In this document: positions 1-64,000 of the stretch, one piece after another
How positions within the stretch are numbered: position 1 is the first letter of the stretch
Layout of the letters: every line of letters begins with the position of its first letter
Origin: Bilabrum cf. latius
Taxonomy: Eukaryota
NCBI GenBank assembly: GCA_965178125.1
Contig: OZ237757.1
Coordinates: 310,001 to 374,000, forward strand
Length of the DNA: 64,000 nucleotides
Direction: 5' to 3'
Made by a program: the position numbers and the translations under genes
Notes under the pieces: generated by a model
Seen by the model: only the letters and a program-made list of their open reading frames with translations
Told to the model about the DNA's origin: nothing
The model's database searches: none

Positions 1-1
1 C

Positions 2-3000
2 GGGAGGTCCGGGTCAGATCTTGATTTGCACCCCGGGTTGGCGGCAGACGCTCCCGCGTACTGGCCCCCTCGGATGGGCGTGCTGCTGCCTGCATGGCAC
101 GGAGCTCACCTAGTCAACGTGTCATTCGCTTCATTCGGACCCCAGGCTGCGACTGCTTAGTCCTCAGGGGATGGCGGCCATGAGGATGACTATGCTGTTG
201 GCGCTTGCTCAATGTGCGAGCGGTTCACGCCCTACGGTGGCGGCTGGGAATCAAGGTGGAACCGGGTCTGGTGGTCGACTGGACGGATGGCAGAATGGGA
301 TCTGGAAACATCCAGGCCGGCGTACCCCGATGCATTTGACAACAACACCGGGAGCGAGATCTCGAGGCGCATGCTGTGGCGCTGGGAGCATGAGGGCGTG
401 ATCGCTGACTTGGACGGGACCTTCTGCCCCTTGCAGCCGGGCGATGTGGCCTACAGCCAGCTCGACTATCCTCACGCGCTACCGAGGACCATCTTGCCAT
501 ATACGCCGCTAGCCGATGTTGCCTCAGCCGATTGTGCAGTGGCTCCAGACCCCGAGTACACGCATGGTCGCGGTGGAGGAGTCGTGTGTGCGGGAACGCC
601 ATGGCGCAGGCTTGCAGCCAACAACACGATCCCCGAGAGTCTGTTCCGCCGAGACTTCACCCTCACTCCCGTAGATGGGTGGCGGCACCGCCTGTCTGCC
701 CCGGTGGATGCCGGCGCGGAAGCGGACGCCCCGTTTTCGAATGCGAGAAGGACGCATCCAGGCGGCTGGGTGGCTCTCGTTCCTGGCAATTCCACCATCC
801 TCATCGGCTTCAGGCATCCAGCATGGCCGGATCTTCACCTGCAGCAGATAGAAGTGGGCGCGGGCGAGTTCGACAACTGGCCCACCCCTGCAGCTCAGTC
901 GCCCGAGCTCGCTGCACTGTCTATGATGCTGCCCTATGAAGTGGGTCACGGCCTTGACCGCTGGACAGACGATGAAGTCTGGCTTAGGTTGGCGTTTCCT
1001 CACGCACTGGACCGTATCGAAGTCGAGTACAACCTCGTGGCTGAGGCCCCACACAATGATATCGTCGTGCAGTCTCCCACGGTCGGAATCCCTGGGCGGC
1101 ACACCATGTTCGGATCGTGGACCATGGACACGGCAGCTACCACTGCCGTCGTTCTGTTGAACGGAAATGACGCCTCCCGCCTGGAACGTGACAACCGCAT
1201 GTGCCGGCATTCGACGTACGCCCGCATCACTGCTTACAGGGCAACAAGTTGGGGCGATGGTGGTGGAGGCGGGGGCGGGGGTGGTGGAGGCGGAGGAGGC
1301 GGCAGTGGAGGTGGTGGAGGCGGCGGTGGAGGCGGCGGTGGAGGTGGTGGTGGGAGCGGAGGAGGAGGTGGCGGTGGAGGTGGCTCCTCGCCATGCCCCA
1401 CCCGATGCGAGCTTCTAGGGTACCGCGAGACATTCAAGAGGCTGTGGTCCTTCTCTTCCACGTGGACTGGCATGCCATGCATGGGATACACCGGGCTGCC
1501 CGTTACCGGACAGACCGTCGTCATCTCAGCCAACAAGCACGTGGTTCTGGATGTATCGACACCTGTTCTCCGTGCACTCGTCATCGAAGGCATTCTTGAG
1601 GTGCACGACAGGGGCGAGGGTACTGCGCCTCTCCTGCTTCAGGCCGAGCACATTATCATCCGGAAGCACGGTGCGCTGCTCGTGGGATCGCCGGCGCGGC
1701 CCTACCGCGGCAACTTTGAGATCCGCATGGTGGGCGACAGGCACAGGCCAGCGTTCCTGAACGGCTTCGACACGTTTGCGCCTAGCAAGGCCATCACTTC
1801 TAACGGAAACCTCACTTTGGTGGGCATCAGCAGGAGACCCTCGTGGACTCGGCTGCTGAGATCCGCCAAGGCTGGCGACACCGAGGTGGTGGTCATGGGC
1901 CAGGCCCAGCTCTGGCGAGCCGGCGATCGCATCGTGTTAGGGCCTACTGGTTTCAGGCACAACGAGACGGAGGAGGCCATCGTTCGCAGCGTGACCCGGC
2001 GCTCTCTCATGGTTGCGGAAGCGGGCGGTTCCAGCGTGGTCGGTTTCGGCCCGGCTGTGGCCGCGCTGGGTACGACTGGGGCCGACCGGGCCGGCAGCGG
2101 TCTCACAGCCTTTGAAACCGTGATGGAGCTGACGGCACCGCTTTCCATGGACCACGATGTGATCGATGACTCTCCTGGTCCCGCCTCTGCTTCCTCTCGC
2201 GGAGTCTTCGGGCCGGGTGATCCCTGGTCCAGTGGATCGCCAGATGTGGTCGCGTGGTCCAGCGGTGAAGACGATGCAGTACAGACTGTAGACCGGCTCC
2301 ATGCCCTTGCCGATGCCTCGGATGAGGCGTTCCCCTCCAGGCCCAAAGCCCTTGCTGGTGGATCGGAGGCCGCCCAAGCTGGAGAGAGTCCAAGAGGTGC
2401 AGAGCTGAGGGCAAGGGCGGCTGCAGACGGAGGGCACGGCTGGATGGCCGGCCACCGTCCGTTCTACGACGGCATGATCAGCGAGCATAGGTTCAGGCCA
2501 GCGGCAGAGGTGGCCGTGCTGACTCGCAACATCCGAATCGTGGGGATCGACCCCCCTGCCTCAGCGCAATTCTTCACCTCTGACGTCACTGCACAGGAGG
2601 AGTCACGGTACGGAGTCAAGGTGCAGATCAGGGACGACCAGGATGAGGTGTGCACCGGGTATCTTGACAACGGCCGCGGTGTGCTGCGCGACGTTGCCAT
2701 GGAGAAGTGCGGGCACGGGGCTGCCGCCATCGTTAACGGTGAGGGCTCCTGCCTCACCTTTGACATGGTCAAGAACCACGGCCCTGCGCCGGCACCGGCA
2801 AGTCGGCCGGCCTGGGACTGGGGCGCAATCCGGCGGTTCGCCTTTCCCCATCCGGCGCCTGCCGCACCCCTCCCGATTTCAACCACCCCTGGCGCCGCCA
2901 CCGATGAGACCTCGGACGATGATGGTTGGGGCGAGCCCGAGGCAGCCGGGCCGTTCCTGGCTCACGGCATCACCTTCCGCAGCCTCTACCATGGTGCGGT

Positions 3001-6000
3001 GGCGGTGACTTAGGAGGCCGAGGGTGTGATTGTTCGCGACGGTGTGGCACACGGCGCGGTTGCGCCCGGCATCGTCGTGCGCACGCGGTACGCAAACGTA
3101 ACTGGCATGCTCATGCTGGCCACTAGGGTGGTGGACGAGCTTACCAACGACGTGGCTCCCAGCCAGGAGCCCATGGAGACTGACGATCACCGTAAGCCGG
3201 GGGCGATCGACGTTCTGGGTGCCGGCCACAGAATTCTGGGCAACGTCGTGGCTGGCGCAGAAAGCGCTGGCTTCACGATCCAGCTGCCCGCTTGCGGCGG
3301 GTACGAAGACGTGCTGCAGAGGCCCGACCGCAATCCCACGAAAGAAGTTGAGCGTGCCCTTCGGTTCGCTTCGACTGTGGTGGCAGGCAACGAGGCCCAC
3401 TCCGTCTCGTTTGGCCTCCTGCCGGTGGAGGACACGGTGTCGCCCGTGATGCGCTGCAGCTCGATCCAGTCGTTTCTGTCCTGGCGCGCGCAGGAGTTCG
3501 GCGTCCTGGCTTGGCTGCAGGGCTCTACAGAGATGCAGGGAGTTACAGTGGCCGGGTCACGTGGCGGTATACTGGTGAACTCATACCGCCCTTCCATGTC
3601 CTCGCACGAGCTAAACACGAAATCTATTGCACTACGGCGAGGTGCCCTCATCGGGCTGCTTCGAGGCGATTCCTCTAAGAACAGCCCGCAGCTCGAGCCT
3701 GATGCAGTGCGGTACAGGTGGTCGTGGGGCGTGCTTCGGATGGAGGAGGAATGGGCGGGCCCGTGGGCAGACGTGCCGGATGCGGTGTACTACCGCAACC
3801 CCAGCTACGGGCGCGTGGGCCTGATCCTACCTTCCTTCGCGTCTGAGGCGAGGACGCCCCGCGAGGAGTGGTCCATGCCCCCGTGGCGAGTGCCCTCCGC
3901 TCCGAGCCTGGGTGGGAGGACAGTCCTGGAAGACGTGTCGATTTCGGGTTTCGTGGACCGGGAGTCGGAGCTGGTTCATGCCCGTGGTGAGGAGGACCCC
4001 TTCACTGCGGAGAGGGGCTCTAGCGACGAGTTCGGTGGTGCCATCCGCCAGTCTCCAACGCACGTCGCTGTCATGTCCAACCCGCTGTCCAAGGATGCGC
4101 AGGCCGTGCTTCACACGGCCAACATCACGTGGCACAGCGCCAGGGCCAGGGGCGGGGGACAGGCCTCCATCGGGCAGGCTGATGTAGCGGAGCAAGATGC
4201 TATTGCAAAGGAACGATCGCATCGTTTCTTCATCCACCCGAGCGACGACAAGGACATCGGTCGGCTGAAGCCGTGCGGTCGCATGGAGTGCGACGGCCAG
4301 AGGCAGGTGCTCCTGACAGACCTCGACGGGTCCTTCGTCTCTGTGCACGGTGTGACGAGCATTGCGGCCCAGTCTGCCAAGAACCCGAATGCCGTGGCGG
4401 GCGCATACAACGAGACTCTTCTGGACCTGGACGATGACGCGCTGCTGTCCAATGTGGAGGCACCGCCTGCCAGCCCGTGGATCGGCAGGCGGCTCGTCTC
4501 GGTGTTCAGCCGATCTGAGCTCAACTTCACGCAGGCGCAAGGAGCCAACTTCTGGAACTTTGTGCCGGTCACCATCAAGGTGCGAACGGTGCTCGGGGTG
4601 CACATCCCGGAGCCAGAGCTAGCCCACTCCAGAGGCATCGCCAGAATCGAAGGAAGGCCGAGCGTGGCTCAGGTCGGCGCAGCTCTGTCGGACGACGCCT
4701 CATTGCCGTCTGGCATACGGGGCCGCAGTGCCGTCGTGTCCTCTTCATCGCCGGTGGACGCTTCCGTGATGCCCGACCTCGACGGGCAAGCCGGTGCGCC
4801 GGACCCGCTGCCGACATACCTCGCCTACGCTGGCGAGGCTGCCGGCTTCGCCTCGCAGGTGGACTCATTCGACCACAGCGGGGCCGCCCCCCTCTCCGAC
4901 TCGATCGAGACCGGCCCGTGCCGCCCCGAGCACGGATGGAACGCCTGGTCCTGTGCGTCACCTCTCCGCCATCGGATGTTTGTGGCTGAATCGCTGGACG
5001 CCGACTCGGAGACCCGTCGGGTGGGTCCCCTCGCCCTGCTTTCCACAGGCTGGAGGGGGGTGCGAGCCGCGGGATACGAAGGTGAGGCCTTGGGAACCGG
5101 GAATGGCAACGACGACGGGCTTGGTGGTGGCTATTTGCAGCTGATCAATGGGCCTGGGGACTGGGGTACCTGCTTTGGGTACTCTTGCTTCACTCGCCCT
5201 TCTACTTTCATGGGCGTGGTGGCCACCCCGCAGCACTACACCATGTACTGGAGTGCCACTGGACCCAGGCGGACGAGGCTGAGGCTGCTGCACGCCGAGG
5301 ACGACGACGCAGTTGTTCTCTCAATCTGGTACGAAGAGCCCAACAAGCTGCAGGTGTCTGTCAACGGCCATGACGTGGATGACATGAACTTTGACGGAGA
5401 CAGGCACAGGTCCTTCATCGAGCCCGGGTATGAGGAGGTGCTTCCACGTACGTGGCATGCGGCCGGAACGAATGCTTACCATAGGGGCACCCGCACGCTG
5501 CACCTCGTGGTCCGTGGTGACGCCGTGGTCAAAGTGCGGACTCTTCCTATGATCCAGGTGTCCATGGTTCTTGCAATGTCGATTGAGGACTTCTTCAACG
5601 ACCAGGAGAACTTTGCCAACCGGGTTGCGTTTGTGCTGGGCATTCCCCTGAGCCAGCTCAGAGTCGTCAATGTCGTCGCTGGTTCAGTCGTCGTATCCAT
5701 TGAGCTGCTGCCGCCCGACCTGACTGGGTCGACGACTGCAGGCGGCGGCGAGGACGCCGCTGACGACGATGAGGCGGCGTGGAGCGCTTGGATCGACGAC
5801 TTCTTCGCGTCGATCAGCGAGGGACAAGGGCCCCTCGGGGGCGCCTCCAATGCTTCGGACGAGTGGATGGCTCAGCAGTACGCTGCCTTCCAGGAGCTGC
5901 AGGAGTAGCTCGAGAGGCAGGAAGCCAACGGGGACGTGAGTGCCACAGCTCGCATGCTGGCCTACCTCCAGCTGCTACAGAACCGCCTGCTCATCGCTGC

Positions 6001-8778
6001 TACCAACGGAGAATTGGAGGCCGCACTGGGAGTGGCTCTGGAACGGCTGCAGCTGGAGCCGCCCAAGGTGCCAGAGCTGGTGTCAAACGCGACTGCGAAC
6101 GGAGAGGTGGATGAGGACTTGAGCGGTGTGCTGAGCGAGAAGCTGAACGCGACCGGAGGGGAGTTACCGCCTGACGTGGCTGCGCTGGTTGGAGCGGGTG
6201 ACGAAAACGGAGGCGGTATTTTGGTGGGCACCGGCGTGGTCGACCTGGTCGCGCCAATCTAGTCGGTGAGTGTGTCTATCGACGCAGGCAGTGCCAACGC
6301 CACCTCCCTAAGCGCAAAGGTCCGTCGGCTCGAAGGTCCCTTGAACACTGTCAGGACCGCGGTGGGAGCCGGCAGGCTCTCGGGCACTGCCGCGGACCCC
6401 ATGCATGGAATCGACGTTCTTGCTCGATACGGCGTAAGCTCGGAGGTTGGTGCCACCCAAGTTGAGGATGCCGCGGAATACGCCTCCCTCGATGCCATCG
6501 GGGCTGCCAGCCACCTGCGCTGCGCGATTGCCGCCGATCCGACCTCTCTGCTAGCAGAGGGCTCAAGGCTGCGCACCGGAGGAAGCGTTGAGGTGCTGGA
6601 GTTTGCACCGTACCAGACCACCGCCGAAGTGGCGCTATCCATGTCATCCAGTCTGCGGGGCGTCCTCGGTGAACTGGCCGTGTCTAGCGGAGCGAGCCGT
6701 AGCTGCGCTGCGGTGGGAATCTAGCTCTCGTTGGTGGAGGGTAGCGAGGACCAAGCCGACCCTCAGAACCGGGAGGATGGTGGGGCGGCTCAGGAGTGGA
6801 GGGCAGCGGCCCACGGTGCGATTATCACGACTACCCTTGTGATCGAGCCTCCGCGCCGGGACCTGGCTCTTATTGGTGATGCTGTGGGTGCCGCTCAGGC
6901 GGCATGCGCTGACGGCGCATGCGCCCGCAACGCAACGCGTGAAGCGGTGCTTGCTGCAGCCGGCATCGCCGACGCATCACTGGTGCTGGATGTAGAGGAG
7001 CAGCCTGCGATGGACGCAAGCCTGCGTGCTAGTCTCCTGGCCGAGCGGGCACGCATCGAAGCCGTGGCTTCCGCTCGATCTGCGGTGGAAGCTGCCTGGG
7101 CCACTTCTTGGGTGGGCGAGGAGCCCAGCGTGGTGTGGGTTGAGCTGCCTGAAGCCGGCCTCGAGTACCTCCCCCAGCCACATTGGGCTCCTGACGCTCC
7201 AGAGCTGCCGGGCGTAGAGGGCCGTCTGGGATCAGCAGTGGTCACTGTGCGGCGGTCTGCGGCAGGCCGCCAGGCTCGCGTGGTAATCGCTGTGCTGGGT
7301 GGTGCAACGGCCGGTGACGTTCCAGCGGTGGAAGTTACCATGGTGGCTGGTGAGAGAGAGGCTCAGGTGGAGCTGGCCCCCGCAGTTGAGGCTGCCCTGG
7401 GCATCGTCACCGCTTCCGGGGCCGCTCGCGCCATGCAGGAAGCATCTGGCCTTGGACTGGCAGTGGTGGCGTGTGCCGGGTGCGTAACTCCTGCAGATGC
7501 TGGCTCGCCAGGACTGGCAGCAATGGGTCTATGCCCCGTGTGGGGCGACACAATGACAGCGGCGGCACTGGCCGCCGGCAATGCCTCCAGTGCCATCGAG
7601 CTGGCGGATGGGTCGGTCAGCAGTGACGCCCGTGCTAATGCTTTGACTGTGTTGCGTGATGCGATGGCAAGAGCTGGAGCCGTGGCAGACTGGTCCATCG
7701 ATTCGTCGACTGCATCAGAAATGCCCATGGCAGAGTGTGCTCGAGCGGCGCTTGACAACGCTGTCTTGGCTGCGGCACAGGCGGGTGCTGCGGCCAGGGT
7801 AGCGGCAGGCGACCTGGACCAGACTGCAGCAGATTCTCTTCTGGGCGCAAGCAGCCCCTCTGACTTGTTCCCTGGGTCTAGTGCAGCCGCAGCTGCGCCT
7901 GCAGCGTCGGTAGAGTGGGCCTCTGTGCCTTCCGATGCGTCGACCGTAGGGATCCAAGTGAGAGCCGTCCCGTCGACCTCTCCAACCCCAACCGCAACAG
8001 CGACCCCCACACCAAGCATTTCGTCGAGTCCCGCTGCGTCCGGCGCACCTGGGATCATCGGCCAGGAGACCGACGGCGGGGGCGATGGCAGCGATGGGTC
8101 TGGTCTCTCTGGGGCAGAGACCGGTATTTTGATCGGCGTGCTGGCCGTGGTGGCCCTGCTGGCAGTCGGTGGAGCGGCTTACTTCCTGCTGACCTAGCGA
8201 GCTCGCAGGGACATCAAGCAGACCCTGCAGGCCCGCTCTGCAATCTCCTCTGGAGGCAAACCCATGTCCGACAAGGAAGCCCGCTTGGAATCGGCGCGGA
8301 GCACCCGGTTCGTGACCTTCCATGCGGCTAATCCGCTCGCGGTGGTACGGGACCGAGCCAAATCGGGCGGAGATGAAGGCAAGACGACAACGCCCGACGG
8401 TGCCGCATCGCCAAGCGCCAGCGGCCTGACCAGCCGAGAGTCTCTTCCTCTTGGTATGCCAACCACGCAGAACCCCCTGCACGCCCTCGAAGCCGGCGAT
8501 CTCACCTATGCGGGTCTTCAGGAGGCTGCAGCAGTTTCAGGCACTAGCGGACCTCGCCGCGCCTCTGCCCAGCCTGGATGGAGGCCCAATCCACTGGCTG
8601 CCGGTGCTGGACGGGTTGGTGGCTAGGCCGGTGAGCTCTCCATTGCTCCGACCACAGCGCGCCGAGAGTCGGCAGATGGCTCTCCCTCAGGATCCACCTC
8701 CTCCCGGTCTCTGCTCGCGGGGAGGCGTCGGTCAAGCTCGCTGATCGCACGGAGCAGGCAACGGATGGCTGCTGCTCG

Positions 8779-8838
<60 letters not shown>

Positions 8839-9295
8839 ACAAGCGAGCCAGGAGATGTACGGTGCCATCGATGCGGGTAGCAGTGACGGGCATGAGACAG
8901 CCTTCGCTGCCGGCATGGTGTCCTCCACTGATGCAGGGGGGATGTCCGAGCCGATCGGTAGCCGCGGTCGCGGGACCGCTCGGCAGGGCCGGGGTCTCGC
9001 ACGGTCGAACGGGGCGTCTCTAGGCCACAGCGCTGGCAGCGGAACGCCGCAGCGCCGCTCGAGCAGCAGAGGGGACGGCCGTCGGAGGCGACGGTCTTCC
9101 ACTCGCGTGTCGGCTGCTGCCTTCGAGGAGGAGAACCCCGTGCATGGCCGATCCAGGAGCGGGCCTGGGTCAGCAGCTGCGTCCCTGGCCGTGGGTGCCG
9201 GCGTGCAGATGGGTGGCGGGGCGGTGTCCTCGGGCGTGTCTTCATCGTCCTCCAGCGGGGACTCTGGGACGGATCACACGGATGCCGCCGAGTAA
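2..9295 (+). CDS. Fibrocystin-L/PKHD1L1-like G8 and beta-helix domain single-pass membrane protein (5' truncated by the window edge; >3090 aa with TAG=Gln)
   Basis: Track ORFs starting at 212, 3026, 5936, 6266, 6731, 8264 and 8765 share one frame. They are separated only by TAG (158, 3011, 5906, 6260, 6722, 8195, 8624) and end at TAA 9293-9295. Motifs: G8 domain (VVISANKHVVLDVSTPVLRALVIEGILEV...AEHIIIRKHGALLVGS..RPY), AAEVAVLTRNIRIVG, GNEAHS, MECDGQRQVLLTDLDGSF, ESLDADSETRR, FANRVAFVLGIPLSQLRVVNV. A hydrophobic TM segment at about 8119-8194 is followed by QRARR. Confidence 0.85.
1253..1385 (+). repeat. Poly-Gly (GGN) low-complexity linker before the G8 domain
   Basis: GGT/GGA/GGC run encoding about 40 Gly interrupted by Ser. 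Confidence 0.9.
8780..8836 (+). repeat. (CAG)19 microsatellite encoding polyQ in the cytoplasmic tail
   Basis: Perfect CAG trinucleotide run, in frame with the G8-protein ORF. Confidence 0.95.
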
Positions 9296-9687: not shown

Positions 9688-12600
9688 ATGCTGTTCCTAG
9701 CAGTTAACTTTATAATATGTGCAGTTTCGATGCAAACCGCCAAAGTCAAGGCTGACCCGGTCAGAGAGGGCTCGACCGTACAACTCTCGAAATGTGATGT
9801 TTAGTCCAGTTTACAAGCCTGGACGATCGAGTCTGGCAAGTGAGTTCATTCAGATGTTTATGTTTCTGCATTGATTTCATCCATTTACTCCTTCATTTAG
9901 CCGGCAAGCTGTAAGACCTCCTGCGCAAAAGTATTGCAGATACCCGGACGGGCGCATTAAACTGAGGAATAGTGGGCAGACTGCGGTACTTGATATTATT
10001 CATGCTTTAAATGAGTCAACGGCCCAAGTCCGGGTTTGGCAAGAGGAATCAGAAGCCTGGATGCAGCAGTGGACCTACAGTTCGTCGACCGGAAGGATCC
10101 AGTCCTCGATGAATCAAATGTGCTTATCGGTGATCGAAGACTATGGTCTTGATGGTGCTCCTGTAGTGATGCGAGCATGCAATCTGGGTAAGGTAAATCA
10201 ATGGGAATACTCCAGGGACACTGGTCGGATCAGCAGCTAGCTCGCGAGCGGGTACTGTTTGGACGCTGGCACGGCTTACAACTGCTCCCAGTTGTCAGAT
10301 CGAGTGTATTGCAACCCAGACGCCCCTATTGAAGCCAGACTGGACGACTTGGTCCCCAGAATCAACCCTGCACAGGCGGCGCAGCTCCTGTTCGCGGGGA
10401 GCTCCTGGGGAGTCGGTCTGCTGGGAATTCCCCCCTTCACGTTCGGGGAGGCACTGCACGGCGTGCTAGCGACATGTGGCAAGCCCTTTGACGCCTCATC
10501 GACCGGTTGCCCCACGTCGTTTCCTCACGCCCTGATGCTTGGCGCGAGCTTCAACCGATCGTTGTGGAGGCAGGTCGGCATGGCCATCTCCTTCGAGGCC
10601 AGGGGCCTCGGTAACCAGGCGCAGTGGGGCGGTGGGGCTGCCTGGGCTCCCGATATCAACCTGTTCCGTGACCCTCGCTGGGGCAGGGGGCAGGAGGTGC
10701 CCGGGGAGGACCCTGTGCTCAACTCGGAGTACGCCTTCGAATACGTTACTGGGCTGTAGGGGCTTGATGACGAGGACTACATCCGGGTGGTGGCAACACC
10801 CAAGCACTTCTCCGCCTATGATCTCGAGAATTGGAACGGTACTACGCGCAGTGCGTTCAACGCGATCGTGTCGTTCGGTGAGCTGGTGGAGTATTTCTGG
10901 CCCGCGTTCCGCTCGGCGATCGAACGCGGGGGTGCAAGAAGCGTCATGTGCAGCTACAACGCAGTGACGGTGCGCAACCAGACGCACGCATCGACTGGCA
11001 TCCCATCCTGCGCTAACAGTTTCTTCAACAACGATATTATCCGTGGGGAGTGGGGCTTTGATGGCTTCATAGCATCCGAGTGAGGCACTACTCATGTACA
11101 GACACAGCGCAGCATCGTGGCATTTCTTGCATCGTGATGCCGTGGCGGACCCTTCGGAATCGATGGCTGTTTCATTTAGTGCCTTTGCTTTTCATTTGCA
11201 GCTGCGGTGCCGTTCAGAACATAATGGATCCGCACCAGTATGCGAGTTCCCTTGACGCAGCGGTAGGCGATGCAGTCAGAGGCGGGACCGACGTCAACTG
11301 CGGCTACACTTACAAGCAAAACATGCTCCACGTAAGAAACTTTGCCGACCGAAACTCAATTTCTCCCATTCCCCCCCGCCACCCCCATTTTCAAGCGTCT
11401 AAGCAGTGCCTTGGCGTACATCGCAGTCGGTTGTATCGGGAAACCTGACCGTGGCTGCAGTGCAGCAAGCAGCCCGGCGATACCTACGGCAGGTGATCCG
11501 ACTGGGTGCGATGGATCCGCCCGAGAGAAACCCCTACCTGCAGCTGGGGCCAGAAGTTGTTGACACGCCCGCCCACCGAGAGCTGGCCCTTGACGCGGCT
11601 CGGCAGGGGATTATCCTGCTCCAGAACCAGGGCGGGGTGCTGCCACTGGACGCGTCCAAGCTGTCCTCCATCGCCATGATCGGCCCGCATGCGAACGCAT
11701 CCTAGTCCATGCTCTCCAACTACCACGGTACGAACACCCTGGTCGACTCACACAGCCCGCTGCTTGCGATGCAGCGGTTGGCTCCCAGCACGATCGTGCA
11801 GTACGCCCAGGGATGCGACATCCGCTGCAACGAAACGAGCGGATTTGCAGACGCTGGGCTGCTGGCCCGAACATCGGACGCCGCCGTTGTATTTCTCGGT
11901 TTGGACTAGTCCTAGGAGGCGGAAGGCTTGGACCGCACTTCGATTGATCTGCCAGGGCAGCAGCTGGCCCTGCTTTAGACGGTCGCTCGAGCGATTGGCC
12001 CGTCCAAGCCGCTCGTGGTGGTGTTCATGCACGGCGGGGTTCTTGGTGACGCGTGGATCAAGGCCAACGTTCCGGCTATTGTGGACGCGCACTACCCCGG
12101 GGAGCTCGGAGGGGACGCCATCGCTGAGGTGCTGCTGGGGCAGACCAACCCGAGCGGGCGAGTGACCACCACCTGGTACGCGAGCGACATCACCAGCAAG
12201 CGATCCATGTTCGACATGAGCATCAAGCCGCACGATGACGTGCCCGGGCTGACGTATATGTTCTACGGGCCCGAAGACGGGGCCATTTGGGAATTCGGAG
12301 ATGGCCTGTCCTACACCACCTTCGACGTGCAGTGGGCCTCCGGGGTTGGGGCAGCACCTATGGCTGTGGCGGGGTCCGATGTGGCCAGCGGGGTGCAGGA
12401 GATGTCTTACACGGTGAATGTGACCAACACTGGCTCTGTGGCGGGGGCGTGGAGCGTGCTCGGTTTCGTGACCCCAACAGGGGGTGAGGGGCTGCGGGTG
12501 TCTGGTGCCCGCAGGGAGCTGTTCGACTTCGATCGCACGGCCGTGTTGGCCCCTGGCAAGTCGCAAGTGCTGCACCTGACCATCCCCGCCTCTGTGCTGG

Positions 12601-12737
12601 CCAGTGCAGACGAGGACGGCGAGCTGGTGGTGCGCGAAGGCTCGTACGAGGTGCAGATTGAGGGGCTGCGGGCCGGGATTGAGGTGGGCAGGGGCACGGG
12701 GGCGACTGTATTCTCCGTTACGGGAGCGGGTACATAA
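9688..12737 (+). CDS. Secreted ricin-B (CBM13-like) lectin + GH3 beta-xylosidase/alpha-arabinofuranosidase; exons 9688-9839, 9940-11079, 11202-11331, 11427-12737 (about 910 aa)
   Basis: Signal-like N-terminus MLFLAVNFIICAVS and QxW repeats (LQAWTI, MQQWTY, NQWEY, CLDAG). GH3 motifs EALHGV, TSFP, WAPDINLFRDPRWGRGQEVPGEDP, KHFSAY, VMCSYN, SDCGAV (joined across the intron), IILLQN, YPGELGGDAIA, FGDGLSYTTF. In-frame TAG at 9802, 10238, 10757, 11703, 11907, 11913, 11976; ends TAA. Confidence 0.9.
9840..9939 (+). other. Spliceosomal intron (GTGAGT...TTGCAG), 100 nt
   Basis: Removal joins the signal-peptide exon in frame with the ricin-domain exon (GGC AA|A TAC). Confidence 0.75.
11080..11201 (+). 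other. Spliceosomal intron (GTGAGG...TTGCAG), 122 nt
   Basis: Removal restores the GH3 catalytic motif S-D-C-G-A-V (TCC GA|C TGC). Confidence 0.9.
11332..11426 (+). other. Spliceosomal intron (GTAAGA...TCGCAG), 95 nt
   Basis: Removal restores the frame: NMLH|SVVSGNLTVAAVQQAARR. Confidence 0.8.
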
Positions 12738-20600: not shown

Positions 20601-20977
20601 ACTGGGATTGACGTGAGGTTGCCAAATTTTACAGCCACTTTGCTGATGGGCTCGCTGTGGGTAGGGAGACGAAAAGATCCATTAGTTTCGAATTGAAACT
20701 CGCAAGGAGCCACAAATACTTGCATATCCTGTCTAGCCCCGCCAAGTTCAGATGCAAGAGTGGACGACACCTGATATACATCGTAAGCCAAGCGCGGGCT
20801 GTGCTCAAGGACTGCATCCTCGCCCTGCTCTGGCACAGCTCTCGACAGCAGGGTGAGGACGCCAAGGAAAATTATGGGAATTCCGAGCTCGCGGCACAAA
20901 TCGCGACGATTCCTAGACTGAATGAGCAGATTCTTCCATACCAAAGCTTTTACTTGCTGAAATAGTGACGACGGCAT
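14609..20977 (-). CDS. Full-length ABCA-subfamily transporter (2 TMD + 2 NBD, about 2122 aa, no intron needed)
   Basis: Nine track ORFs in one minus frame joined by about 13 TAGs. Motifs: N-terminal QVKALVWKNLL; NBD1 LLG(TAG)NGSGKST, LSGGQKRRL, LLLDEPSSSLDP, VTHHMQEAE; NBD2 GANGAGKST, YSGGNKRKL, DEPSAGVDP, TTHVLEEA; C-terminal SQCSLEQVFI. Ends TGA at 14609-14611. Confidence 0.92.
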
Positions 20978-44473: not shown

Positions 44474-44616
44474 ATATCGATGCAGACACGTTTGAAGAAT
44501 TGATGGCGAGAGCGCCGAACCTCGACAGGCGCGAAGGAACCTTCGCTTCGCTGCCGATGCCAAAACTTATATTTCTTGGGGTTCAAGATTGCCCTAGACT
44601 CGTATTGCATCAAATC

Positions 44617-53355: not shown

Positions 53356-54711
53356 TCACGAGCCACCCGCACCGCCGCTCGCTACCGAGGCACCCTTAGG
53401 TGCAGCGTCCGCGTCCTGGTCCGCGCCGCTGTCGGGTTCCTTCCAGCTGCCATCCTCGGTGGCTCTCGCCTCGAACCAGGCCAAATCCTGCGGCCACGGT
53501 GGCACGCCTCCCGGCCTCGTCCTCTTCTTCGACTTCCAAGCGGATCCTTTCACGAACGGTGAACCGTGAAGCGGCATTGCAGCCCTGTACAGGCCCCGTG
53601 TGAAGAACTAGTGCCCTCCCCACACAGGGTGTCGCCCGTCCAGCAGGCTGAGTTTAGGCCTTTCGCCATCGCTATCCTTCCCGATACCGCCGCCGCCAGG
53701 CATGCTCTCCTCTGCAACGTCTGCCGATTCGCCGCGTGCCCCTGCCGCGCTGCCCCCATCACCTGCCGCTGGCTCTACCGCATCCTCCCCTCCAACTCTC
53801 ACGGGCTCTTTGCCCCCGAACGGCACGATCCACCTCAGGCTGAAAGGGTCTTCGAACCCCTTCCTCGCGATCAGGCACACGGCGCCCACCTCGAACGCAC
53901 CCTCGAACGCGGCCGGGACGTATCCTTCCTCACCCGGCTGCAACCCACGGCGCGGTTCCGGTTTTGCGGCGGCGCCAGGTGCTACTCCCGAACTCGCCTC
54001 GACGGGAGCCCCGGCCGAAGCACCACCTGCCAGCGGCCCGTGGGGGTGCCCGGAGGTATGCCCGCCTGTGGCGGCTTCGGCAGTAGCCGAAGCTCCTGCT
54101 CGTCTGCCTTTGGGGCGCCGTGGAGGCTCTGTCCCGGTTTGCAGTCGATGAGCAGCGGCTGCGGCCATTTTCCCCGAGGGGAGTTGCCCCACGGATGCGT
54201 GCGGAGCATACCTGCCACCGCCCCTCTCGCGAAGGTGGTCGCACTAGGGAAACGCCTCCAACAAGAATCCATACAAACGCTGCCACGGATCATCGAATTT
54301 ATGGTCGCTTGACTCCTTTGATGATTCAAGGGACGGATCCTTAGCGTCAGCTGCGGCTTCATCGACTGGATCGACCGGAGTTGGAGAGAGCCATAGCGTA
54401 GCAGAGCTGCCATGGTCGAACTTATCGAATCGATCTAAACCGATCTCAAACGGTTTCATAGCAATAAGTGCTTTCGATGCCTACGATGCAGCCGCCTCAA
54501 ATTCACTCTCTGGTAAGAACGGGTACATTACGTTCACGTGCGGAGGCCATCTGGTGTGCGCCCTATCAAACTCATACCGAAGGAGCTACAATCTAGCCCA
54601 GCATCGCAGTGGTGGAATAACACACAGCGCAGTCTTAACTACTGGTTCAATCGACCCGGACACCTTTGACATGCTGCTCGGAATGCGTTCTTGCTCCGTT
54701 GCCACCGGCAT
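53356..54711 (-). CDS. 2H phosphoesterase / 2'-5' RNA ligase-family protein (LENG9-like; about 451 aa)
   Basis: TALCVIPP...(TAG)LLRYEFDRAHTRWPPHVNVMYPF, KPFEIGLDRFDKFDHG, YAPHASVGQ, FEVGAVCLIARKGFEDPF. Four TAGs join the track ORFs; ends TGA 53356-53358. Confidence 0.8.
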
Positions 54712-54777
54712 GCTATTTTTGCAAACCGGAACCACACGCTTTCGCGATCGCCACCGCCGGAACATAGCGTAGAAGCC

Positions 54778-56157
54778 ATGGAAAACGTGCTGGAGTAGGT
54801 GAAGCAAAACTTCAACGAAGTTATTGACGGATACAGCACGTGGGTCTTGGTCCTGGCCGGGGTTTCTTTGATCGTGTCAGTGCTGTCGGTGTTTGCTCTG
54901 GTTGTTGCCTGCGCTCGAACTCGCTTCAGGGTAGGCCCTTCCATCATTGAATGGACAAAATTGATGCAATATGGCTGGGATACTATTGGCGTGCCCCTGT
55001 CGATCTGCCTGAGGCAATACCCCGTCGTCGGTGAGCTCGATGCCTTGCATGCGGAGTATTGTGTTCGTTGACTCTTCTCCAATTCGATCTGCTGGTTGCC
55101 ATCGTATATCGTGCTCGCAGCCTCCTGTCAGATTCCGTTCTTTCACAACCTCCGCGACGTGTACTCGTTCGTATTCGGCTGGAAGCGCGACGGAGTGTTC
55201 GTCGAGATCGGCGCCTTTGATGGCGAGACGATTTCCAACACGTGCTGCCTCGCCGACATCGGGTGGGAGGGCCACTACATCGAACCGGTCCCGCAGTACG
55301 CCGCGCAATGCAAAGCGCGTCACGCCCGCAACCCGAAAGTCAGCGTGCACCAGTACGCTGTGGGCAAGACGGCAGACGAGGGCAAGACCATCGAGCTGCA
55401 GGTTGCAGGGCCTTTCAGCAGCGGTGACGACGAAGAGATCGCCGCGATGAACAAAATGGGGCCGCTACTGCAGTTCCTGGCATTCTTCGGCTGGACCGCC
55501 AGCGGAGAGACAGCCAAGGCGACCATCAAGCCCCTCAATGCCGTGCTGGAGGAGGACGCAGGCATGGCGGCTGTGGACGGAAGCGACGGGGAGGACGAGG
55601 GCAAGAAGGGCAAGAAGGGTAAGAAGAGCAGCAAGGGAGGCCCCAGGAAGCGCCGCGGATCGAGGTCTAACGGGGAGCTGGCAGACAGCGCTACCAACGC
55701 CGCTGCCTCCGCCTCAAAGGCGGACCAGAAAGGCGACTCCAAGATCACGACTGCCACCATGCAGCTGGCCACCGCCGATGACGAGGAGGAAGAGAAGGAT
55801 GATTCCGAGTTCGTGAAGCGCGCTCTCAGGAGCGCCGGGTTTGCGACCGGCGAGGACGGCAATGACGCAGAGGAAGATTCGTCGACGGTTCGCTTTGCCA
55901 TGGACGTGATGGTGCTGGACGTGGAAGGCATGGAATGGCAGGTGCTCAAGGACTTTGACCTGCCCAAGCACAGGCCCCGGCTTGCCATCGTGGAGATTTA
56001 GGAGAAGCTCACCCGCATGCAGGGTGACAGGAGGCAGCTGCGCGACGCTGCTCGCATCGAGGAGTATTTCTACAACCACGGGTACTCGATCCTGTACCGT
56101 GATGTGATTAACACCGTGTTTATCCACAGGGCGGTGCGGTGCCACGGAGAGAACTGA
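54778..56157 (+). CDS. FkbM (Methyltransf_21) family SAM methyltransferase with N-terminal membrane anchor; intron 55031-55120 (about 429 aa)
   Basis: TM segment WVLVLAGVSLIVSVLSVFALVVAC. Motifs FVEIGAFDGETISNT, GWEGHYIEP, DVMVLDVEGMEWQVL, PRLAIVEI(TAG), GYSILYRDVINTVF. The intron GTGAGC...CGCAG removes an in-frame TGA. Ends TGA 56155-56157. Confidence 0.85.
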
Positions 56158-56679
56158 ACTGAAAGACGCATTGCGCCGATTGCTACTGCAGCATGCGGTT
56201 GGGCTAGTAGAACATTCCAAGAAGAATGATCGGCTGGGCGGCTCATTGCACTGGTCACTTTGATCAAGGGGGTATGTTGGAGGGAGTCGGGGGAGGGGGG
56301 ATATATTGATGTGAGCAGTTGCATGGGCAGTGGAAGCTCTGGAACTGATGCGGCGAGACTGTGTGCTCCTATCTCCAGGAGGCTTCCAGCGTCGCATGTA
56401 TGCGACGCTGGTGCTTCCTGAATCGGAGTCCAGCTTGCTTGTTGGTTCAATTGCACCGTAGAAATTTCATTTTCGCAACGACCACTGGTCGGCGACCATG
56501 TCTGGCTTCAATTTTGGTTTTGCGACCAATCCAACCCGGAACCAGTTGCAACCGCACCCACGAACTTTTCCGTTCGCGACGCAGGACCGCCACGACCAAA
56601 AATCCAACGGATTCGACGTTTGTGAATACACTTACACGCAAAGTTGTGTCATTACATACTTTCTGTTTGAGTTTTTGGA

Positions 56680-59600
56680 ATGAGAGGGGCGTAGCGGGCC
56701 CCCACGGCCCCCTCAGGCGGCCTTGCTTCGACGATCGGTCGAACAGAGGGGATCTACGCCACTGGGCCGCGATAGTTTAAGAGCTCGAGCCACTCAAGGG
56801 TGGGTACACGCACTCGAACGGCTGGTGCTGCCAGTCATAGGCATCGTGGCAAGTAGGGCACGGCTGGAGGAAGCTAGCGTGCCGCGGGCAGGGGAGGACT
56901 AGACATGGATTTGCTCCAAAGGGCGCAACGGGTTGTAGTAGACGGAGAAAACGTGCAAGATGTGGTGTCACAGCATGCAGCTGGAAGCTTGCGATTGTCG
57001 CCTCTCACGGAATCGAAACAGCCAGAGCGGGAAGCGCCGGTCGCCCCGGTCGACGGCACGTCCCAAATGTTGCCGCAGGCGGCCGCAAGCACATCTGGCG
57101 CTCGGCGCAGTCGGCGATAGCCGCAACCTCACGTGCGCACGGATTTGCAGCCGTACAGCGATCCCCTGCCCGGTTCCACGAAAGGGGCAAATGCCCGTGC
57201 GAGCACAGCCGGCCGTGCTCGCACGCCTTCCGAGGGTGACGACGCGGTGTCGTACCTTGACGACTAGGGCGACAACGGCAGCAAATCATCGAAAGAGATC
57301 GATCCGGACGACGGCGTGAACTGGAGGGAAGAGGCCCACAGGTGGCGACAGGCACATGACGAGCTCCGGCACAGAGCCGACGAGGCCAGCCTGGCTGCGC
57401 GGCGCCGCCAGGCTGCGGAACACGCAGAGACCCGGAGGCAGCTGCTGGAGCTGCAGGCAAGGTAGGCAAAAGCCGAGGCCGAGGCGGCGCAGCTGCGGCA
57501 GCGGATGCGGCGCGCCGGGCTGGCCTCGCGGGACGGTGGTCCCGCGGCGACTCCTGCATTCCGGCCCGGCAGGGGCGGAACCGGCGTGCCTGGGGGTGGT
57601 CAGGGCGGCGACGAGTAGCAGCAACAAAAGGAGGGCCACGACGAAGAGGCAGACGCGGCCGCAGACGAAGAGGCGCTGGGCAAGGCCGTAGAAGCTGCCA
57701 GACAGGCAGCAGCGGCAGAGTGGGAGGGCAAGGTGAAGGACATGGAGGCGGAGCGTGCCAGGGAACTGGCGGTAATCAGGCAGCAGCAGGACGCGGAGCG
57801 GAAGCGACTCGCGGAGCAGCGGGACACGGCGGAGCAGGCATTGAGGTCGGGGATGCGACGGGAGGCGGACGTGTCCAAGGAACTAGTGGTCCTCCGGACC
57901 AGGTCGCACCGTCTCAAGTCCAAGCTTGCAGAGGCGCAGGAGGAGGCCAAGAAACTGGCGGAGCAGCGGGACGCCGCGGTCCGCAGCGGCCGATCGTCAT
58001 CCAAGCCGGCCTCGACGGCCAACGGCAGCTCTGCAGAGACGAGCGCGGCTTCAGCCCGACGAGCCGCCCGAGAAGCCGTCGACGAAGCGCACGCCGACGC
58101 AGCCGATGCAAGCAGCGCGTCGCGCGACGCCAGCGCCCCTGGGATGGCAGAGGCCCAGGCGGCTCTCCGTGAAAGGGAGCAGCGCGTGCTGGAACTGGAG
58201 GCGAACCGCTGGAAGGCAAAGGCCAAGAGGGAGGCGGCGTCCAGGGAACAACTGGAGAGGGAGGTCCTCGCTGAGAGGAAGCGCAGGCACGCCGCAGAGG
58301 AGAGGGCAAAGCTGGAGGCAGACAGGAGGCGTGATGCAGAGTCCCATGCAGTGGCAAGCGCCAGCGTGGGTGCAGGTGGCAGCCAGAGCCACGGCGGCAT
58401 AGGCCCCCGGCCATCCATGACCTCTCTGGGGTCCCACGCGGGTGCCGATGCGTCGACCGCGGGCCAGCTGGAGGAGCTGCACAGCGCGCTGAGGCAGGCG
58501 CAGGAAGAGGCGGCCGAGGCCCGGGCCGCGGAGCGCCGAGCCACGGCGGATGCGCACCTGTGGAAAGTCCGCTGGGAGCAGCAAGACGCGCGCATCAGCG
58601 CCGCGCAGCAGAGGGCGCTGGACAGACGCAGGAGACAGAGAGAGGCTGCAGCGAGGCAGGCGGGGACGGGCGCCGATAGCGGGAGAATGAGTGAAACTGA
58701 CGGCGACGCGATGACTGCCCGAAGCGGTGCTGACGATGGCACCACTGCGCTCGAAGACGCGATGGCGGACGGGCTGCTGCTTGGCTCGTTGGCCAGCGGA
58801 TCACAGCGGGACGTGCTGCTGCTCGGTGCACCGACACCCACCCTAAACAAGCCAGGCATATCGGTGCCCGACCGGTCGAAGTCGCCTTCCGGCATCGCGG
58901 GTGGTGCTAATGACGGTGATGGCAGCGAGGAGGCGCATTTGGATGGCCCCGCCAGGCAGGGGGCAGCAGTTCGCACACCCAGGAGCAGGCAGTCGCGCCG
59001 CAGCGACAGGCTCGACGATGAGTAGGGTGCCGGGCAGCAGTTGGGGGCCTCTTTCCCCTCCCGAGAAAGGGACGGGGGGGTCAATCGTGCTACTTCAGCC
59101 CCTCCCACTCGGGGCGGAAGCAGGCGGCGCGGGGCCGGTTCGCCCGTGTAGCAGCAGGCTGGCGATGCCGGGGACGACCCGGCCCATCCAAGCAATGCCG
59201 GGAAGCCCCCTCGCACCCCGTCGGGTTTGCCGAACAGGACCGTGACGAGTGCCGATAGGGTCGGGAGGGGTGCTGGTGCAGGCACGCCGCCTGTCGTGCA
59301 CACCACAGATCTCGAGACGGCACTGCGGGACCTCACAACGCCCAGCGTGGGCTCACTGCCTGACGGTAGCAGGGCCAGAACGGCACCGTCGGGCAGTCGC
59401 AGGGGCGGGCGCGGCGCCGGTTTGACCACCCCATTGGGCAGCCCCGTGATGCTGCACGAGACCGGCGGTCTGTTTGGCACATCTCCCGGCAAGCAGGGTG
59501 GTCAAGCCGCGGGGTAGGAAGGTTTCCGCATCCCGCCGATGACCGCCGGTGTGGGTCTCGGCGGAAGGGGGCGTCCCGGCTCTGCCCATGATGACGGTCC

Positions 59601-62580
59601 GTTGGACGAGGCCGGAAGCAGCAGGCTGGCCGAGCTGGCTGGGGAGGTGCAGAGGCTGCGCCTGCGGAGCGAGAGAGCGGAGCGGGAGGCGAGGACGTGG
59701 AGGGACGAGGCCAGACAGGCCAAAGCATCGAGGGACAAGGCCGCGGCAAGGCATGCAGAGGCGCTGGCCGCGGCTCGGGTGGCTGTGCAGGAGGCAGAAC
59801 GAAGGACCGATGCAGAGCTGGCTCGGCTGCACGAAGAAAATCGCACGCTTGTCAACCAGCTCGTGTCTTCGCAGGCAGGGATTGACCAGGCCCAGGCACG
59901 GGCAGAGGAGTTGCGCGGGGCAGCGGCGGCTTGGAGAGACAAGGCAGCGAAACAGGAAACTCGCGCGCAGGAAGCCGAGGCGCACGCCCATGCGGAAGCA
60001 CAAGAACTGAATCGGCAGCAGCAGATGCTCCGGGAGGAGCAGCAGAGATAGGGGCATGGCGCAAGCAAGCCGTCCGGTGTAGCCTCTGCACACCACGGTG
60101 GGGAACGTCTACCGCACGCGGACGCGTCAGCCTCGGCCTCGGCCGCTGCCAGCAAAGCTGCCAGGCTGCTGATGGCCCTACGCGCCCCCTTGTTTCGGCG
60201 AAGGAACGAATCGTTCCACCACTGGGCCCATGCGACCGGCGCGGGGATCTACGGCTGGGCCGATCATGATGATGCAGACGCACGGCTGGCCGTGCCAAGC
60301 GGCGGCTCGCAGGGCAGCCAGCGGAGCATCTCTCGCACCGTGCACTCGTCGCCCACGTCTGAAGCCGCCGTGGCGCTCGCCAGCGCGGGAGGCCTCGCTG
60401 CTCGTCTCTCCAAGGAAGCCGATGACATGGAAAGGGACCGCTCCCAGAGAGGAGTGCTGCAGACGGAGCAGTCAAGAGCAAAGACGATGGCGGCACGCAG
60501 CGTTGCCATGGAAACTGCAGCAAGGGACGCGGGCGAGGCCGCCAAGCGCGCCCTCAGAGACGCCTCGGAGGCCAAGGCATAGCTGGGCAAGGAGCGCATG
60601 AAGCTCAACCAGGAAAGGGAGAAGGTGTTCAGGCTCAGCGTGGCGGCAGAAAAGGCCGCGAGAGCGTACCGCGCCAGCAACCTCCGGCACATGGCCTCGC
60701 TCTGTTCTTACGTGGCTGCGCATCGCCGCTCCCTCCGAAAGTGGGCTGCCATGTGGGTGGAAGGGAGGGAGAAGATCGAGGCAGGCGCGGCCAAGCTGCG
60801 GGCCCAGCTGCTGCAGCGCGTCGAGCATGCCCTGCGACAGGCCGGCGGGCTCAAGGAGGCGCTTGCCTCCCTGCCGCACGTGATGGCGTCTGCACCCGAC
60901 GGCGCGCTGCTGCAGCAGGGCAGGGAGGAGCAGGCCAGGCTCTCTACCATGCTGGCGGAGGCAAAGCAGCACAGGGACGAGACGCTCAAGCAGCTCATGG
61001 AGTCGAAGAAGCAGGAAGGAATGAGGCTTGGACAGGCCAGGGCATACGAGCACAAACTGCGGGAAGCTCTGTCTCTGTCTAGCCTGGACGGCAAGCAGAC
61101 GTAGAGCCAGGCGTATTCGTCCGCGGCGGCTGCGTCCACCTCTTCACGAATGGGCATGTCGTCTGGAAGCGTCCGAGGGGGCGGCAGCACCAGCAGCTCG
61201 GCAGCATTGGAGCTGCAGACGGTCGCCATGCAGGCCTCCCAGAGGCACGCTGCCAGGCTGCAGGCTGACTGCGAGGTGGCCGCTGAGAAGGTGGAGCAGG
61301 CCACTCGAGCCGCACGAAAGGCGCAGGAGAAGGCAAACGAGGCCGCGCGCGCCGAATGGGAGGCCATACGAACGGCCATGGCCAGCCGAGACGACTTGCT
61401 GGGTCGTGTGGTGGAGCAGTGGGCCGAGGCACACGGCAGCGTGGTGGATGCAGCCACGGAGGGGGCACGCGTGGACGTGCCCGACGCCAATTAGGCGGCC
61501 AAGGAAGCGAGAGAGTTGCTCGCCAGAGCAGAGGAGGCGCATCGAAGGGCGCAGGAAGCCGGGACCGAGGAGGCCGAGGAGAACGAGGAGGATCTCCGCG
61601 CGAGGCTAGAGGCAGAGGCAAAGGAAACGGTGAGACGGGCGCTGAGGCTCGACTACCTGCAGGCAGAAGCAAGGGACTACGCGGTACGAGAGGCCGTGGG
61701 CGAGCTGGAGGAGATGGGCTCCATCGAGGGGGTCCACAACACTCGTCACACCGGTAGTTTGTAGGGCAGGCGCGGCTCTAACGCCTCTGCGGCGGCGCGG
61801 GGCCCAGCAGAGGGGGGGAGGCGGGGGCGACGCGCCTCGCAGCAAGAAATGGCGCTGATGGCACCGCCAGTTGCCGTGCCGCCGCTGGGGAACAGGCAGG
61901 GCAGCGCGCTGACTCACGCTGCTCAGCTGCAGCTGCAGGCTAGGGCAAGGCAGCAGGCGCGGGCGCAGCAGCCCACCATCACGGGTGCGCTTTGGACGAG
62001 ACGGCCGCTGATCCGAGCCGGAGAAGAGGACCGCATGGCAATGAGTCACGGTGCGCTGCCGCCAGTCAGCACCGGTGGTCGCCAGGGAACAAGAGGAGTA
62101 GGTGGCGGGCGGTCACCGGCCCAGGCGTGGGGCACACCGGGCGGCATGCGTCCGGCCACGCCTATGGATGCACTGGCCGCGTCCAGGGGCCACACACCCG
62201 GGTCTCGAGGGCGGAGCAGGGGTGGTGGTCAATCCAGGGGAGGACTGGGATCCACCGGTGGGTTCAGCGGCGGCCAAGACGGCGGGTTCGGGGCCGGGGT
62301 TGTGGAGGACGACGGGGACGCCAACGTGAGCTCGCTGGAGCTGTCCCTGGCCCGGGCACAGGTGAGGGAGAGGGACGAGGCTGCGAGGCAGAACCACTGG
62401 GGGGCTACCTCCTGGAGGCCTTGGGAGTCGGGTGCGTACCAGGGCATGGAGGACAGGAGGAGGGCGAGGTCGAGGCAGGGCGGGGAGCGCGCGGGGCCAG
62501 GTGCTGGTCGAGGTCAGGGGAGGGGGCGGGGCAGGAGAGCCGGCAGTCGGGGGCGGAGCAGGAAAGGTCGAAAGGGGTGA
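56680..62580 (+). CDS. Large coiled-coil protein with RG-rich C-terminus, unknown function (about 1966 aa)
   Basis: One frame from ATG 56680 to TGA 62578-62580, interrupted only by TAGs. All track ORFs from 56905 to 61849 share this frame. Confidence 0.7.
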
Positions 62581-62699
62581 ATCTTTCACAGACAAGGCCA
62601 GTACAAAGTGGTCGAGAGCCAAGGACGCTGTAGCGTTGCGTTTTAGCAATAAAATATGATATTTGCTTGCAGATCCCAATCTGGGACATTCCGCCCAAC

Positions 62700-64000
62700 A
62701 TGCGAGCAATCCTGGCATCATTGGCGGTTAGCGGCGCGATATGTGCTGCGCAGCTGGTATAGCATCGGTATCCGCTCCAGACTGTATGGCCGATGCCTAA
62801 AGAAATGAAGGTGGATGCGTCGGCAGGCCCGGTATACATTTCCAGCGATTTCAAGGTGGTTTGCCAGGGCCTGTGCGCCGACCCCATCGCTGATGCTCTA
62901 CATCGTTTTGAATAGAACATTTTCATTAATGGCACGCCGTCAGCCGTTCCTAGCCCGGCGCTCAACACCTGCACAATGCAAGTCGAGAAGGATGCTCCCC
63001 TTGCGCTTGGAGCCGACGAGTCGTACACGCTCTCCATCTCATCGAGTGGATGCAAAATAACGGCACCGAATCAGTGGGGTGCACTGTACTCGCTTGAGGT
63101 CCTGTCCTAGCTGATCTTCTGGACGCCCGAGGAGAATACCTACAGCGTCCGCAATGGATCCGTCACGATCAACGATGAGCCGCGGTTCCCCTGGCGCGGG
63201 CTGATGATCGACACGGCTCGGCATTACCTCACCCCGGATTCAATCCGTCAAACCATCATGGCAATGGCGGCGAACCGCATGAACACGCTGCACGTGCACG
63301 TCGTCGAGTGAGTCCTAGGCGCGCGACTTGCAGCCTAGACTTGGCCATTCAGCTCCACGCTATTCTCTTCATGAATTCAATGTTGTATCGCAGCGACCAG
63401 TCGTGGCCTTTGGAGAGCATCAAGTACCCGGATTTCGCCGCGAAAGGCAAGTACTGCCCCCGCTGCGTGTTTACCCCAGAGGTCATGAAGGGCATCGTCC
63501 AGTACGGCGCCAGCTTCGGCATCCGCGTGATGCTTGAATTCGACATGCCCGCCCACAGCAGCATCTGGGCCAACGGGTACCCCGACCTGGTCATCACGTG
63601 CGACGAGCCGGACGCCCAGCCCCTGCTGGACCCCACAGGCCCAGTCTACGAGGTGCTGGACAACCTGCTCACCGAGTTCGCGGGAGTGCAAGACGCGGGT
63701 TACGTGCACCTCGGGGGAGACGAGGTCCACAGCTACGCGTGCTGGAACAGCAGCGCCAAGGTGCAGGCCTACATGAAGCAGCAAGGCATCCCGGCAGGCA
63801 ACATGACCGCGCTCAGGGAGCACTTCCAGTACCAGGTGCAGCTCGTGGTGCAGAAGCACGGGCTGAACTCTGTATTCTGGCAGGAGGTGTTCGAGGTGGG
63901 CACCAAACTGCTGAACACGACCGTCATCAACTCGTGGTCGTCGGCCCAGTCGGTGCTTGACGTGGCGCGGGCGGGACAGCCGGTGATCCAGTCGGACGGT
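62700..64000 (+). CDS. GH20 beta-N-acetylhexosaminidase (3' truncated by the window edge); intron 63308-63393
   Basis: Signal peptide MRAILASLAVSGAICAA. Motifs VWPMP, DESYTL, GALYSLEVLS(TAG)L, DEPRFPWRGLMIDTARHY, NTLHVHVVD|DQSWP, IRVMLEFDMPAH and catalytic HLGGDEV. Absent from the ORF track because of TAGs at 62760, 62913, 63108, the intron and the truncation. Confidence 0.93.

Follow-up and report, generated by a model that had tools for sequence, protein, structure and literature searches.

The DNA examined here, called the window throughout, is a stretch of 64,000 nucleotides (nt) from contig OZ237757.1 (assembly GCA_965178125.1, positions 310,001 to 374,000 of the forward strand), and the subject of the analysis is the meaning of the codon UAG in its genes. 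The guanine-plus-cytosine (GC) content is 61% overall with a local range of 54-72%, and 15 genes are found once TAG is read through. This nuclear DNA belongs to a compact, intron-poor, GC-rich (61%), single-celled eukaryote. With the standard code, the longest stop-to-stop open reading frame (ORF) in the whole window encodes 1408 amino acids. Reading TAG as a sense codon yields ORFs of 3097, 2948, 2178, 1969, 1724, 1659 and 1489 amino acids, while reading TAA as sense instead of TAG brought no gain in ORF length in the whole window. The 1408-amino acid ORF belongs to the CFAP70-like gene described below, since this gene carries no TAG after codon 316.

Four adjacent genes are described first. 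The GH3 glycosidase gene, which also encodes a ricin-lectin domain (9940..12737, forward strand), contains 6 TAG codons and ends with TAA at 12735. Its exons at 9940-11079, 11202-11331 and 11427-12737 are preceded by an upstream exon ending at 9839, and the joined exons form a single frame of 859 codons. An alpha/beta hydrolase gene (13041..14474, forward strand, intron 13036-13118) has 3 TAG codons and a TAA stop at 14472. On the reverse strand, an ABCA-type transporter ORF (14609..21145, TGA stop at 14609) carries 15 TAG codons, 14 of which follow the likely start. This start, an ATG at 20977, is predicted from the homolog consensus and from the end of a transcript contig at 20990; the TAG at codon 34 of the ORF lies upstream of both the homology-defined start and the contig end. 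A TPR-rich protein is encoded at 22033..26502 (forward strand, 18 TAG codons, TGA stop at 26500), and a homolog search with its non-TPR part gave no match among proteins of 818-2606 amino acids.

In-frame TAG codons were counted in all genes. The 15 coding frames hold 111 of them, 109 downstream of the first ATG, and exon 2 of the spliced gene at 27168-28092 adds another (112 in total). In the GH3 and ABCA genes, TAG occurs between conserved domains. Across 19,146 codons of coding frame, TAG was found 111 times (5.8 per 1000 codons), and TAA and TGA were not found at all. In each of the five remaining frames of this DNA, the densities per 1000 codons are 5.9-7.3 for TAG, 1.7-4.1 for TAA and 7.9-22.7 for TGA, corresponding to 33-78 TAA and 151-434 TGA codons in each frame. 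Counter-selection of TAG is thus no stronger in frame than out of frame, and TAA and TGA are wholly excluded from the coding frame. TAG accounts for 11.3% of the glutamine codons (111/978), next to 678 CAG and 189 CAA.

No TAG is found among the 14 gene ends of the window. TAA closes four genes (9293, 12735, 14472, 36045) and TGA the other ten (14609, 26500, 28090, 28332, 39375, 39587, 53212, 53356, 56155, 62578). A preliminary description of this DNA, made from the letters alone, had placed these stops correctly in all 14 cases and had noted the lack of exonic in-frame TAA and TGA, which the frame counts bear out. Its statement that every gene carries in-frame TAG, about 100 altogether, holds for 14 of the 15 genes and for the approximate number; the exception is the GH20 gene fragment at the end of the window. 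In three genes a TAG stands close ahead of the stop, at 7, 21 and 35 codons. The last of these, in the ABCA gene, lies upstream of the invariant C-terminal residues L2158 and F2162, and must therefore be read through.

The residue inserted at UAG was assessed from homolog columns. The two large GH3 exons were aligned with 35 full-length homologs. At the TAG at 10757, the column holds glutamine in 34/35 homologs and glutamate in 1/35. Glutamine is found in 19/35 homologs at 11703 and in 21/35 at 11913, and at 11976 it is the commonest residue with 10/35. The column at 11907 is split between proline (15) and glutamine (12), and that at 10238 is variable. As a control, the fraction of GH3 sites with glutamine as the commonest residue was compared between codon types: it was 4/6 for TAG, 10/32 for canonical CAG and CAA codons and 16/736 for all other sites. 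Log-odds were then summed over GH3 and ABCA together, where 12 TAG columns were usable and 8 of the 14 ABCA sites were dropped as too gappy. Only glutamine received a positive score (+7.7 nats), ahead of the next residue by 13 nats; serine reached -5.4 and glutamate -6.6, and every other residue scored below these, leucine for example -11.6.

Searching metagenomes with the GH3 exon retrieved four contigs (L001-L004) with about 70% amino acid identity and 55-58% GC. They come from two metagenome record sets and represent at least three distinct relatives. Their GH3 frames contain 2, 3, 1 and 4 in-frame TAG codons, respectively. In the codon alignment, a TAG of the window stands opposite CAG or CAA of the relatives at 4 columns, and a TAG of a relative stands opposite CAA or CAG of other relatives at 2 columns. 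At one column, the window and all of L001-L004 have TAG. Such exchanges of TAG with CAG or CAA between species are the pattern of synonymous glutamine-codon exchange. Moreover, sense TAG is common to relatives whose GH3 proteins diverge by about 30%, and the reassignment is therefore older than their divergence. A database protein fragment (P0249, 73% identical, from two metagenome sources) begins 2-3 residues past a TAG site that the window has as well. It may be the product of standard-code gene calling cut at this TAG, a contig edge being the alternative. In the synteny comparison of L003, the ORF downstream of GH3 gave no match to the hydrolase of the window.

Positions 9500-28500 were compared with contigs from four public runs, each of a different study. 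Run X3 represents unspliced DNA coverage and showed 0 differences over 12590-28500. In runs X5 and X8, five GT..AG introns (100, 122, 95, 83 and 157 nt) are missing from the contigs, and because of this both runs are taken to derive from spliced RNA. An X5 contig of 7872 nt, reaching from an exon boundary at 13119 to 20990, has 0 differences from the window and includes 17 TAG codons (14 in ABCA and 3 in the hydrolase gene). Two further X5 contigs over 21991-26609 also show 0 differences and include 18 TAG codons. As TAG is unchanged in these spliced contigs, RNA editing, splicing-out and assembly error are excluded for 35 sites. The preliminary description had put the introns at about 100 nt, in agreement with the 83-157 nt observed, and had proposed a comparison of RNA with DNA at the TAG sites; this comparison, with the RNA origin of X5 resting on splicing, came out in favour of TAG being translated as written.

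The same contigs give an impression of gene layout. The hydrolase and ABCA genes are convergent with their stops 135 nt apart, and the single X5 contig at 13119-20990 spans both, which suggests that their 3' ends overlap and that the untranslated regions are very short. Contig ends point to a 5' leader of about 13 nt for ABCA and a 3' tail of about 29 nt for the hydrolase, where an X8 contig ends at 14503, 29 nt past the TAA at 14472. Within the GH3 gene, X3, X5 and X8 contain additional contigs over 10732-10944 and 12287-12546 with mismatches to the window at numerous third-codon-like positions. Paralogous copies of GH3, or a second related organism present in those runs, are the probable source.

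Our data indicate, with high probability, that UAG encodes glutamine throughout cytoplasmic translation and that UAA and UGA terminate, which is the pattern of NCBI table 15. The support is strong because ORF structure, frame statistics, homolog columns in GH3, the exchange of codons with relatives and the lack of editing in spliced contigs all agree, and the code first proposed from the letters of the window is thereby upheld. A few observations weigh against this assignment or soften it. A tRNA scan of the window and of five related loci (L001-L004, L007) found no tRNA gene, and the window contains no eRF1 gene. Run X5 is labelled 'RNA? (probably DNA)' in the run table, so that its RNA origin is deduced from the spliced contigs. 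In the ABCA gene, where 6 of the 15 TAG sites could be scored in the control, glutamine was the commonest residue at 0/6, with a mean glutamine fraction of 0.04 compared to 0.18 at canonical glutamine codons. Since the ABCA TAG sites fall in variable or gapped columns, this gene is uninformative on the residue and speaks neither for nor against glutamine. The identity of the residue is drawn mainly from a single gene family, GH3, and its relatives. In addition, the sample of gene ends is small (n=14), so that rare termination at UAG would escape notice.

This last point bears on an ambiguous code, in which UAG means glutamine and, near true gene ends, acts as a terminator, like the stops of Condylostoma, karyorelicts and Blastocrithidia. 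We consider such a code very unlikely. No gene end among the 14 uses TAG, and the density of in-frame TAG equals that of non-coding frames. The TAG codons 7, 21 and 35 codons before three stops, the ABCA one preceding conserved C-terminal residues, argue against position-dependent termination. A code with both UAA and UAG as glutamine (table 6), in which in-frame UAA is rare through high GC, would agree with TGA being the main stop (10/14 ends) and with UAR to glutamine being the commonest nuclear variant (PMC11687900; this and the following citations refer to excerpts of the papers named). However, in-frame TAA is found 0 times in 19,146 codons, where about 31 would be expected (111/678 x 189 CAA). 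TAA also closes four genes, and the X8 contig stops 29 nt past the one at 14472. These observations make table 6 highly improbable.

That the TAG codons escape translation in the form in which they are written, be it through assembly error, RNA editing to CAG, splicing-out or pseudogenes, is extremely improbable. Contigs from X3, X5 and X8, which belong to three studies, match the covered parts of the window with 0 differences, and X5 contigs bounded by splice junctions keep their TAG codons. The metagenome relatives carry TAG at the same site. Finally, the full exclusion of TAA and TGA from the frames is unexpected of pseudogenes.

For a code with UAG as glutamine and UAA as a stop, a mechanism may be proposed by analogy with other UAG-only codes. 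To read UAG and leave UAA unread, a tRNA must have the anticodon CUA (PMC5304391). A tRNA-Gln with this anticodon would accordingly decode UAG only, and it would probably have arisen by duplication of tRNA-Gln(CUG), which is one change away. The release factor eRF1 would have lost the recognition of UAG, as expected from the other UAG-only codes; for Iotanema, a change in the GTS motif of eRF1 has been proposed behind this loss (PMC9161772).

Known nuclear codes that split UAG from UAA are, according to the excerpted text of PMC11687900, those of Iotanema, Protocruzia, two phyllopharyngean ciliates, one rhizarian and Scotinosphaera. Iotanema spirale (Fornicata) reads UAG as glutamine and uses UAA and UGA as stops (PMC5304391, PMC9161772). 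It thus shares the table 15-type pattern with the window, and UAG terminators are seen neither in the window nor, within the excerpts, in Iotanema. UAG makes up about 8% of the glutamine codons of Iotanema compared to 11.3% in the window, and its primary stop is UAA, whereas TGA is found at 10/14 ends in the window (PMC5304391). Among ciliates, Hartmannula sinica, Trochilia petrani and Protocruzia tuzeti reassign only UAG to glutamine and, as far as the excerpt goes, have the same table 15 pattern (PMC11687900). In contrast to these, the window is a 64-kilobase stretch of 61% GC that holds 15 genes, with intron lengths of 83-157 nt, and three ciliate ABCA sequences fall in another clade of the ABCA tree. 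Phyllopharyngeans have gene-sized chromosomes, and ciliates are mostly AT-rich.

The rhizarian exLh (UAG as leucine) and Scotinosphaera (UAG as serine) resemble the window in that UAG is decoupled from UAA (PMC11687900, excerpt). The 12 usable columns of the window favour neither of these residues, with -11.6 nats for leucine and -5.4 for serine against +7.7 for glutamine. Amber-recoded phages (crAss-like, Lak, 'code 15') also read TAG as glutamine. Theirs are phage genomes, whereas the window has spliceosomal introns and eukaryotic genes. Amoeboaphelidium protococcarum (Aphelida) is another non-ciliate protist with a stop-to-glutamine reassignment. Its genome has 40.5% GC (PMC10608142), and the literature gives both TAG and TAA as glutamine, compared to 61% GC and TAA as a stop in the window. 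Amoeboaphelidium was also tried as the lineage of the window and rejected on these grounds, its genomes having 40% GC (PMC10608142) and a UAR to glutamine code (PMC5304391, PMC6299283).

To which lineage the window belongs was approached through its proteins. The best named ABCA match by identity is from Cafeteria, with 47%. An ABCA tree was calculated with FastTree from 34 rows selected from 120 matches; in this tree Cafeteria, three unnamed proteins and the window form a clade of five with a local support of 100. This grouping is only a hint, as it is drawn from a single gene that is rich in paralogs, has long branches and is skewed in composition. The best named GH3 matches are from sponges, a choanoflagellate and a kinetoplastid. 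The clusters of 20 matches contained as names only Apiculatamorpha, Salpingoeca helianthica, Polykrikos, Namystynia and Bolivina, none of them close. Homolog searches gave no match above about 50% identity except the 73% metagenome fragment, so that the collections searched, whose coverage of Iotanema was unverified, contain no named protein that is nearly identical. Since UAA is the primary stop of Iotanema in the excerpt (PMC5304391) and TGA dominates in the window, Iotanema is unlikely, and the lineage is probably neither Iotanema nor a ciliate.

An independent, undescribed origin of the code is plausible; it is graded no higher because the window holds no marker that places the organism. 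In this respect, an Rfam scan of the window gave no match, including no rRNA. A more specific proposal, which we put forward tentatively and regard as somewhat less probable than its opposite, is that the reassignment of UAG only to glutamine arose independently in a lineage without a reported nuclear code change, possibly a heterotrophic stramenopile related to bicosoecids. The change would be old and fixed across a whole uncultured clade, and not an oddity of a single species.

The code pattern itself is already known; its carrier here probably represents a lineage in which the table 15 pattern is new. In the literature searched, which comprised main texts outside most subscription journals, there was no report of a nuclear code change in a stramenopile, a bicosoecid or another matching GC-rich flagellate, and no UAG to glutamine or table 15 case beyond those named above. 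Since genome and transcript runs were deposited in 2025, the producers of these data may already know of the change. Nuclear codes in which UAG and UAA differ in meaning are rare, and each new case probes how translation separates two codons that are usually treated jointly by eRF1 and wobble-pairing tRNAs. With a contiguous assembly, spliced transcripts and several environmental relatives at hand, the predicted tRNA-Gln(CUA) and eRF1 changes could be compared across species and the change could be dated. On the practical side, gene callers that use the standard code truncate such proteins at each TAG.

The remaining genes of the window are described in order. A giant membrane protein with a G8 domain (PF10162, E = 8.9e-21) is encoded by a 5'-open gene at 2..9295 on the forward strand, with 7 in-frame TAG codons and a TAA stop at 9293. 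It contains a run of about 50 glycines (window positions ~1250-1400) and a run of 20 glutamines (~8660-8730) that is written in canonical glutamine codons only. In the protein atlas, two TAG-free ORFs belong to the families GH20 and G8/CEMIP, with no usable taxonomic signal. A GH20 hexosaminidase gene lies at the other end of the window (63179..64000, forward strand, 3'-open), with 0 TAG in 273 codons. A small gene with a weak SH3_3 match lies at 27168..28092 (forward strand); it has a 157-nt GT..AG intron at ~27674-27831, 1 TAG in exon 2 and a TGA stop at 28090.

The CFAP70-like TPR protein is encoded on the reverse strand (28332..33506, TGA stop at 28332) in a region of about 72% GC, with 5 TAG codons in the ORF, 4 of them after the first ATG. 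At 28001-32000 the local GC content is 72% compared to the mean of 61%, which coincides with this Ala/Gly-rich gene. When the 1385 C-terminal residues were compared with the PDB, the sole match at E<=0.01 was a CFAP70 chain (9ijj_k, E = 1.4e-4) over 91 C-terminal residues, and Pfam shows TPR families only. The earlier naming of the protein as CFAP70 is thus in line with a weak C-terminal match, whereas the Pfam result supports just the TPRs.

A low-complexity protein without a Pfam family follows at 34002..36047 (forward strand); of its 2 TAG codons, one precedes the TAA stop (36045) by only 7 codons. A P-loop-like protein (36561..39377, forward strand) has 4 TAG codons, 3 after the first ATG, and a TGA stop at 39375. 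The gene for a protein with a PD-(D/E)XK nuclease domain (39587..44566, reverse strand) contains 6 TAG codons and ends with TGA at 39587. Two coiled-coil proteins are encoded on the forward strand. The gene at 44368..53214 has 24 TAG codons, one within a glutamine run (NQQQQ-TAG-LQQ), and a TGA stop at 53212; the gene at 56671..62580 has 16, one heading a glutamine run (DE-TAG-QQQ), and a TGA stop at 62578. The position of TAG in such runs speaks for glutamine. Between them lie a gene for a 2'-5' RNA ligase superfamily protein (53356..54876, reverse strand, 4 TAG codons, TGA stop at 53356) and one for an FkbM-type methyltransferase (55072..56157, forward strand, 1 TAG codon, TGA stop at 56155).

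Three short segments, at 22855-22952, 26674-26724 and 21445-21490, stand out in the contig comparison. Their summed contig depth is several-fold increased (316 and 453 compared to about 57 in X3), and at their borders many contigs from three runs break off with loose ends. These segments look like short dispersed repeats, one of which is located inside the TPR gene.

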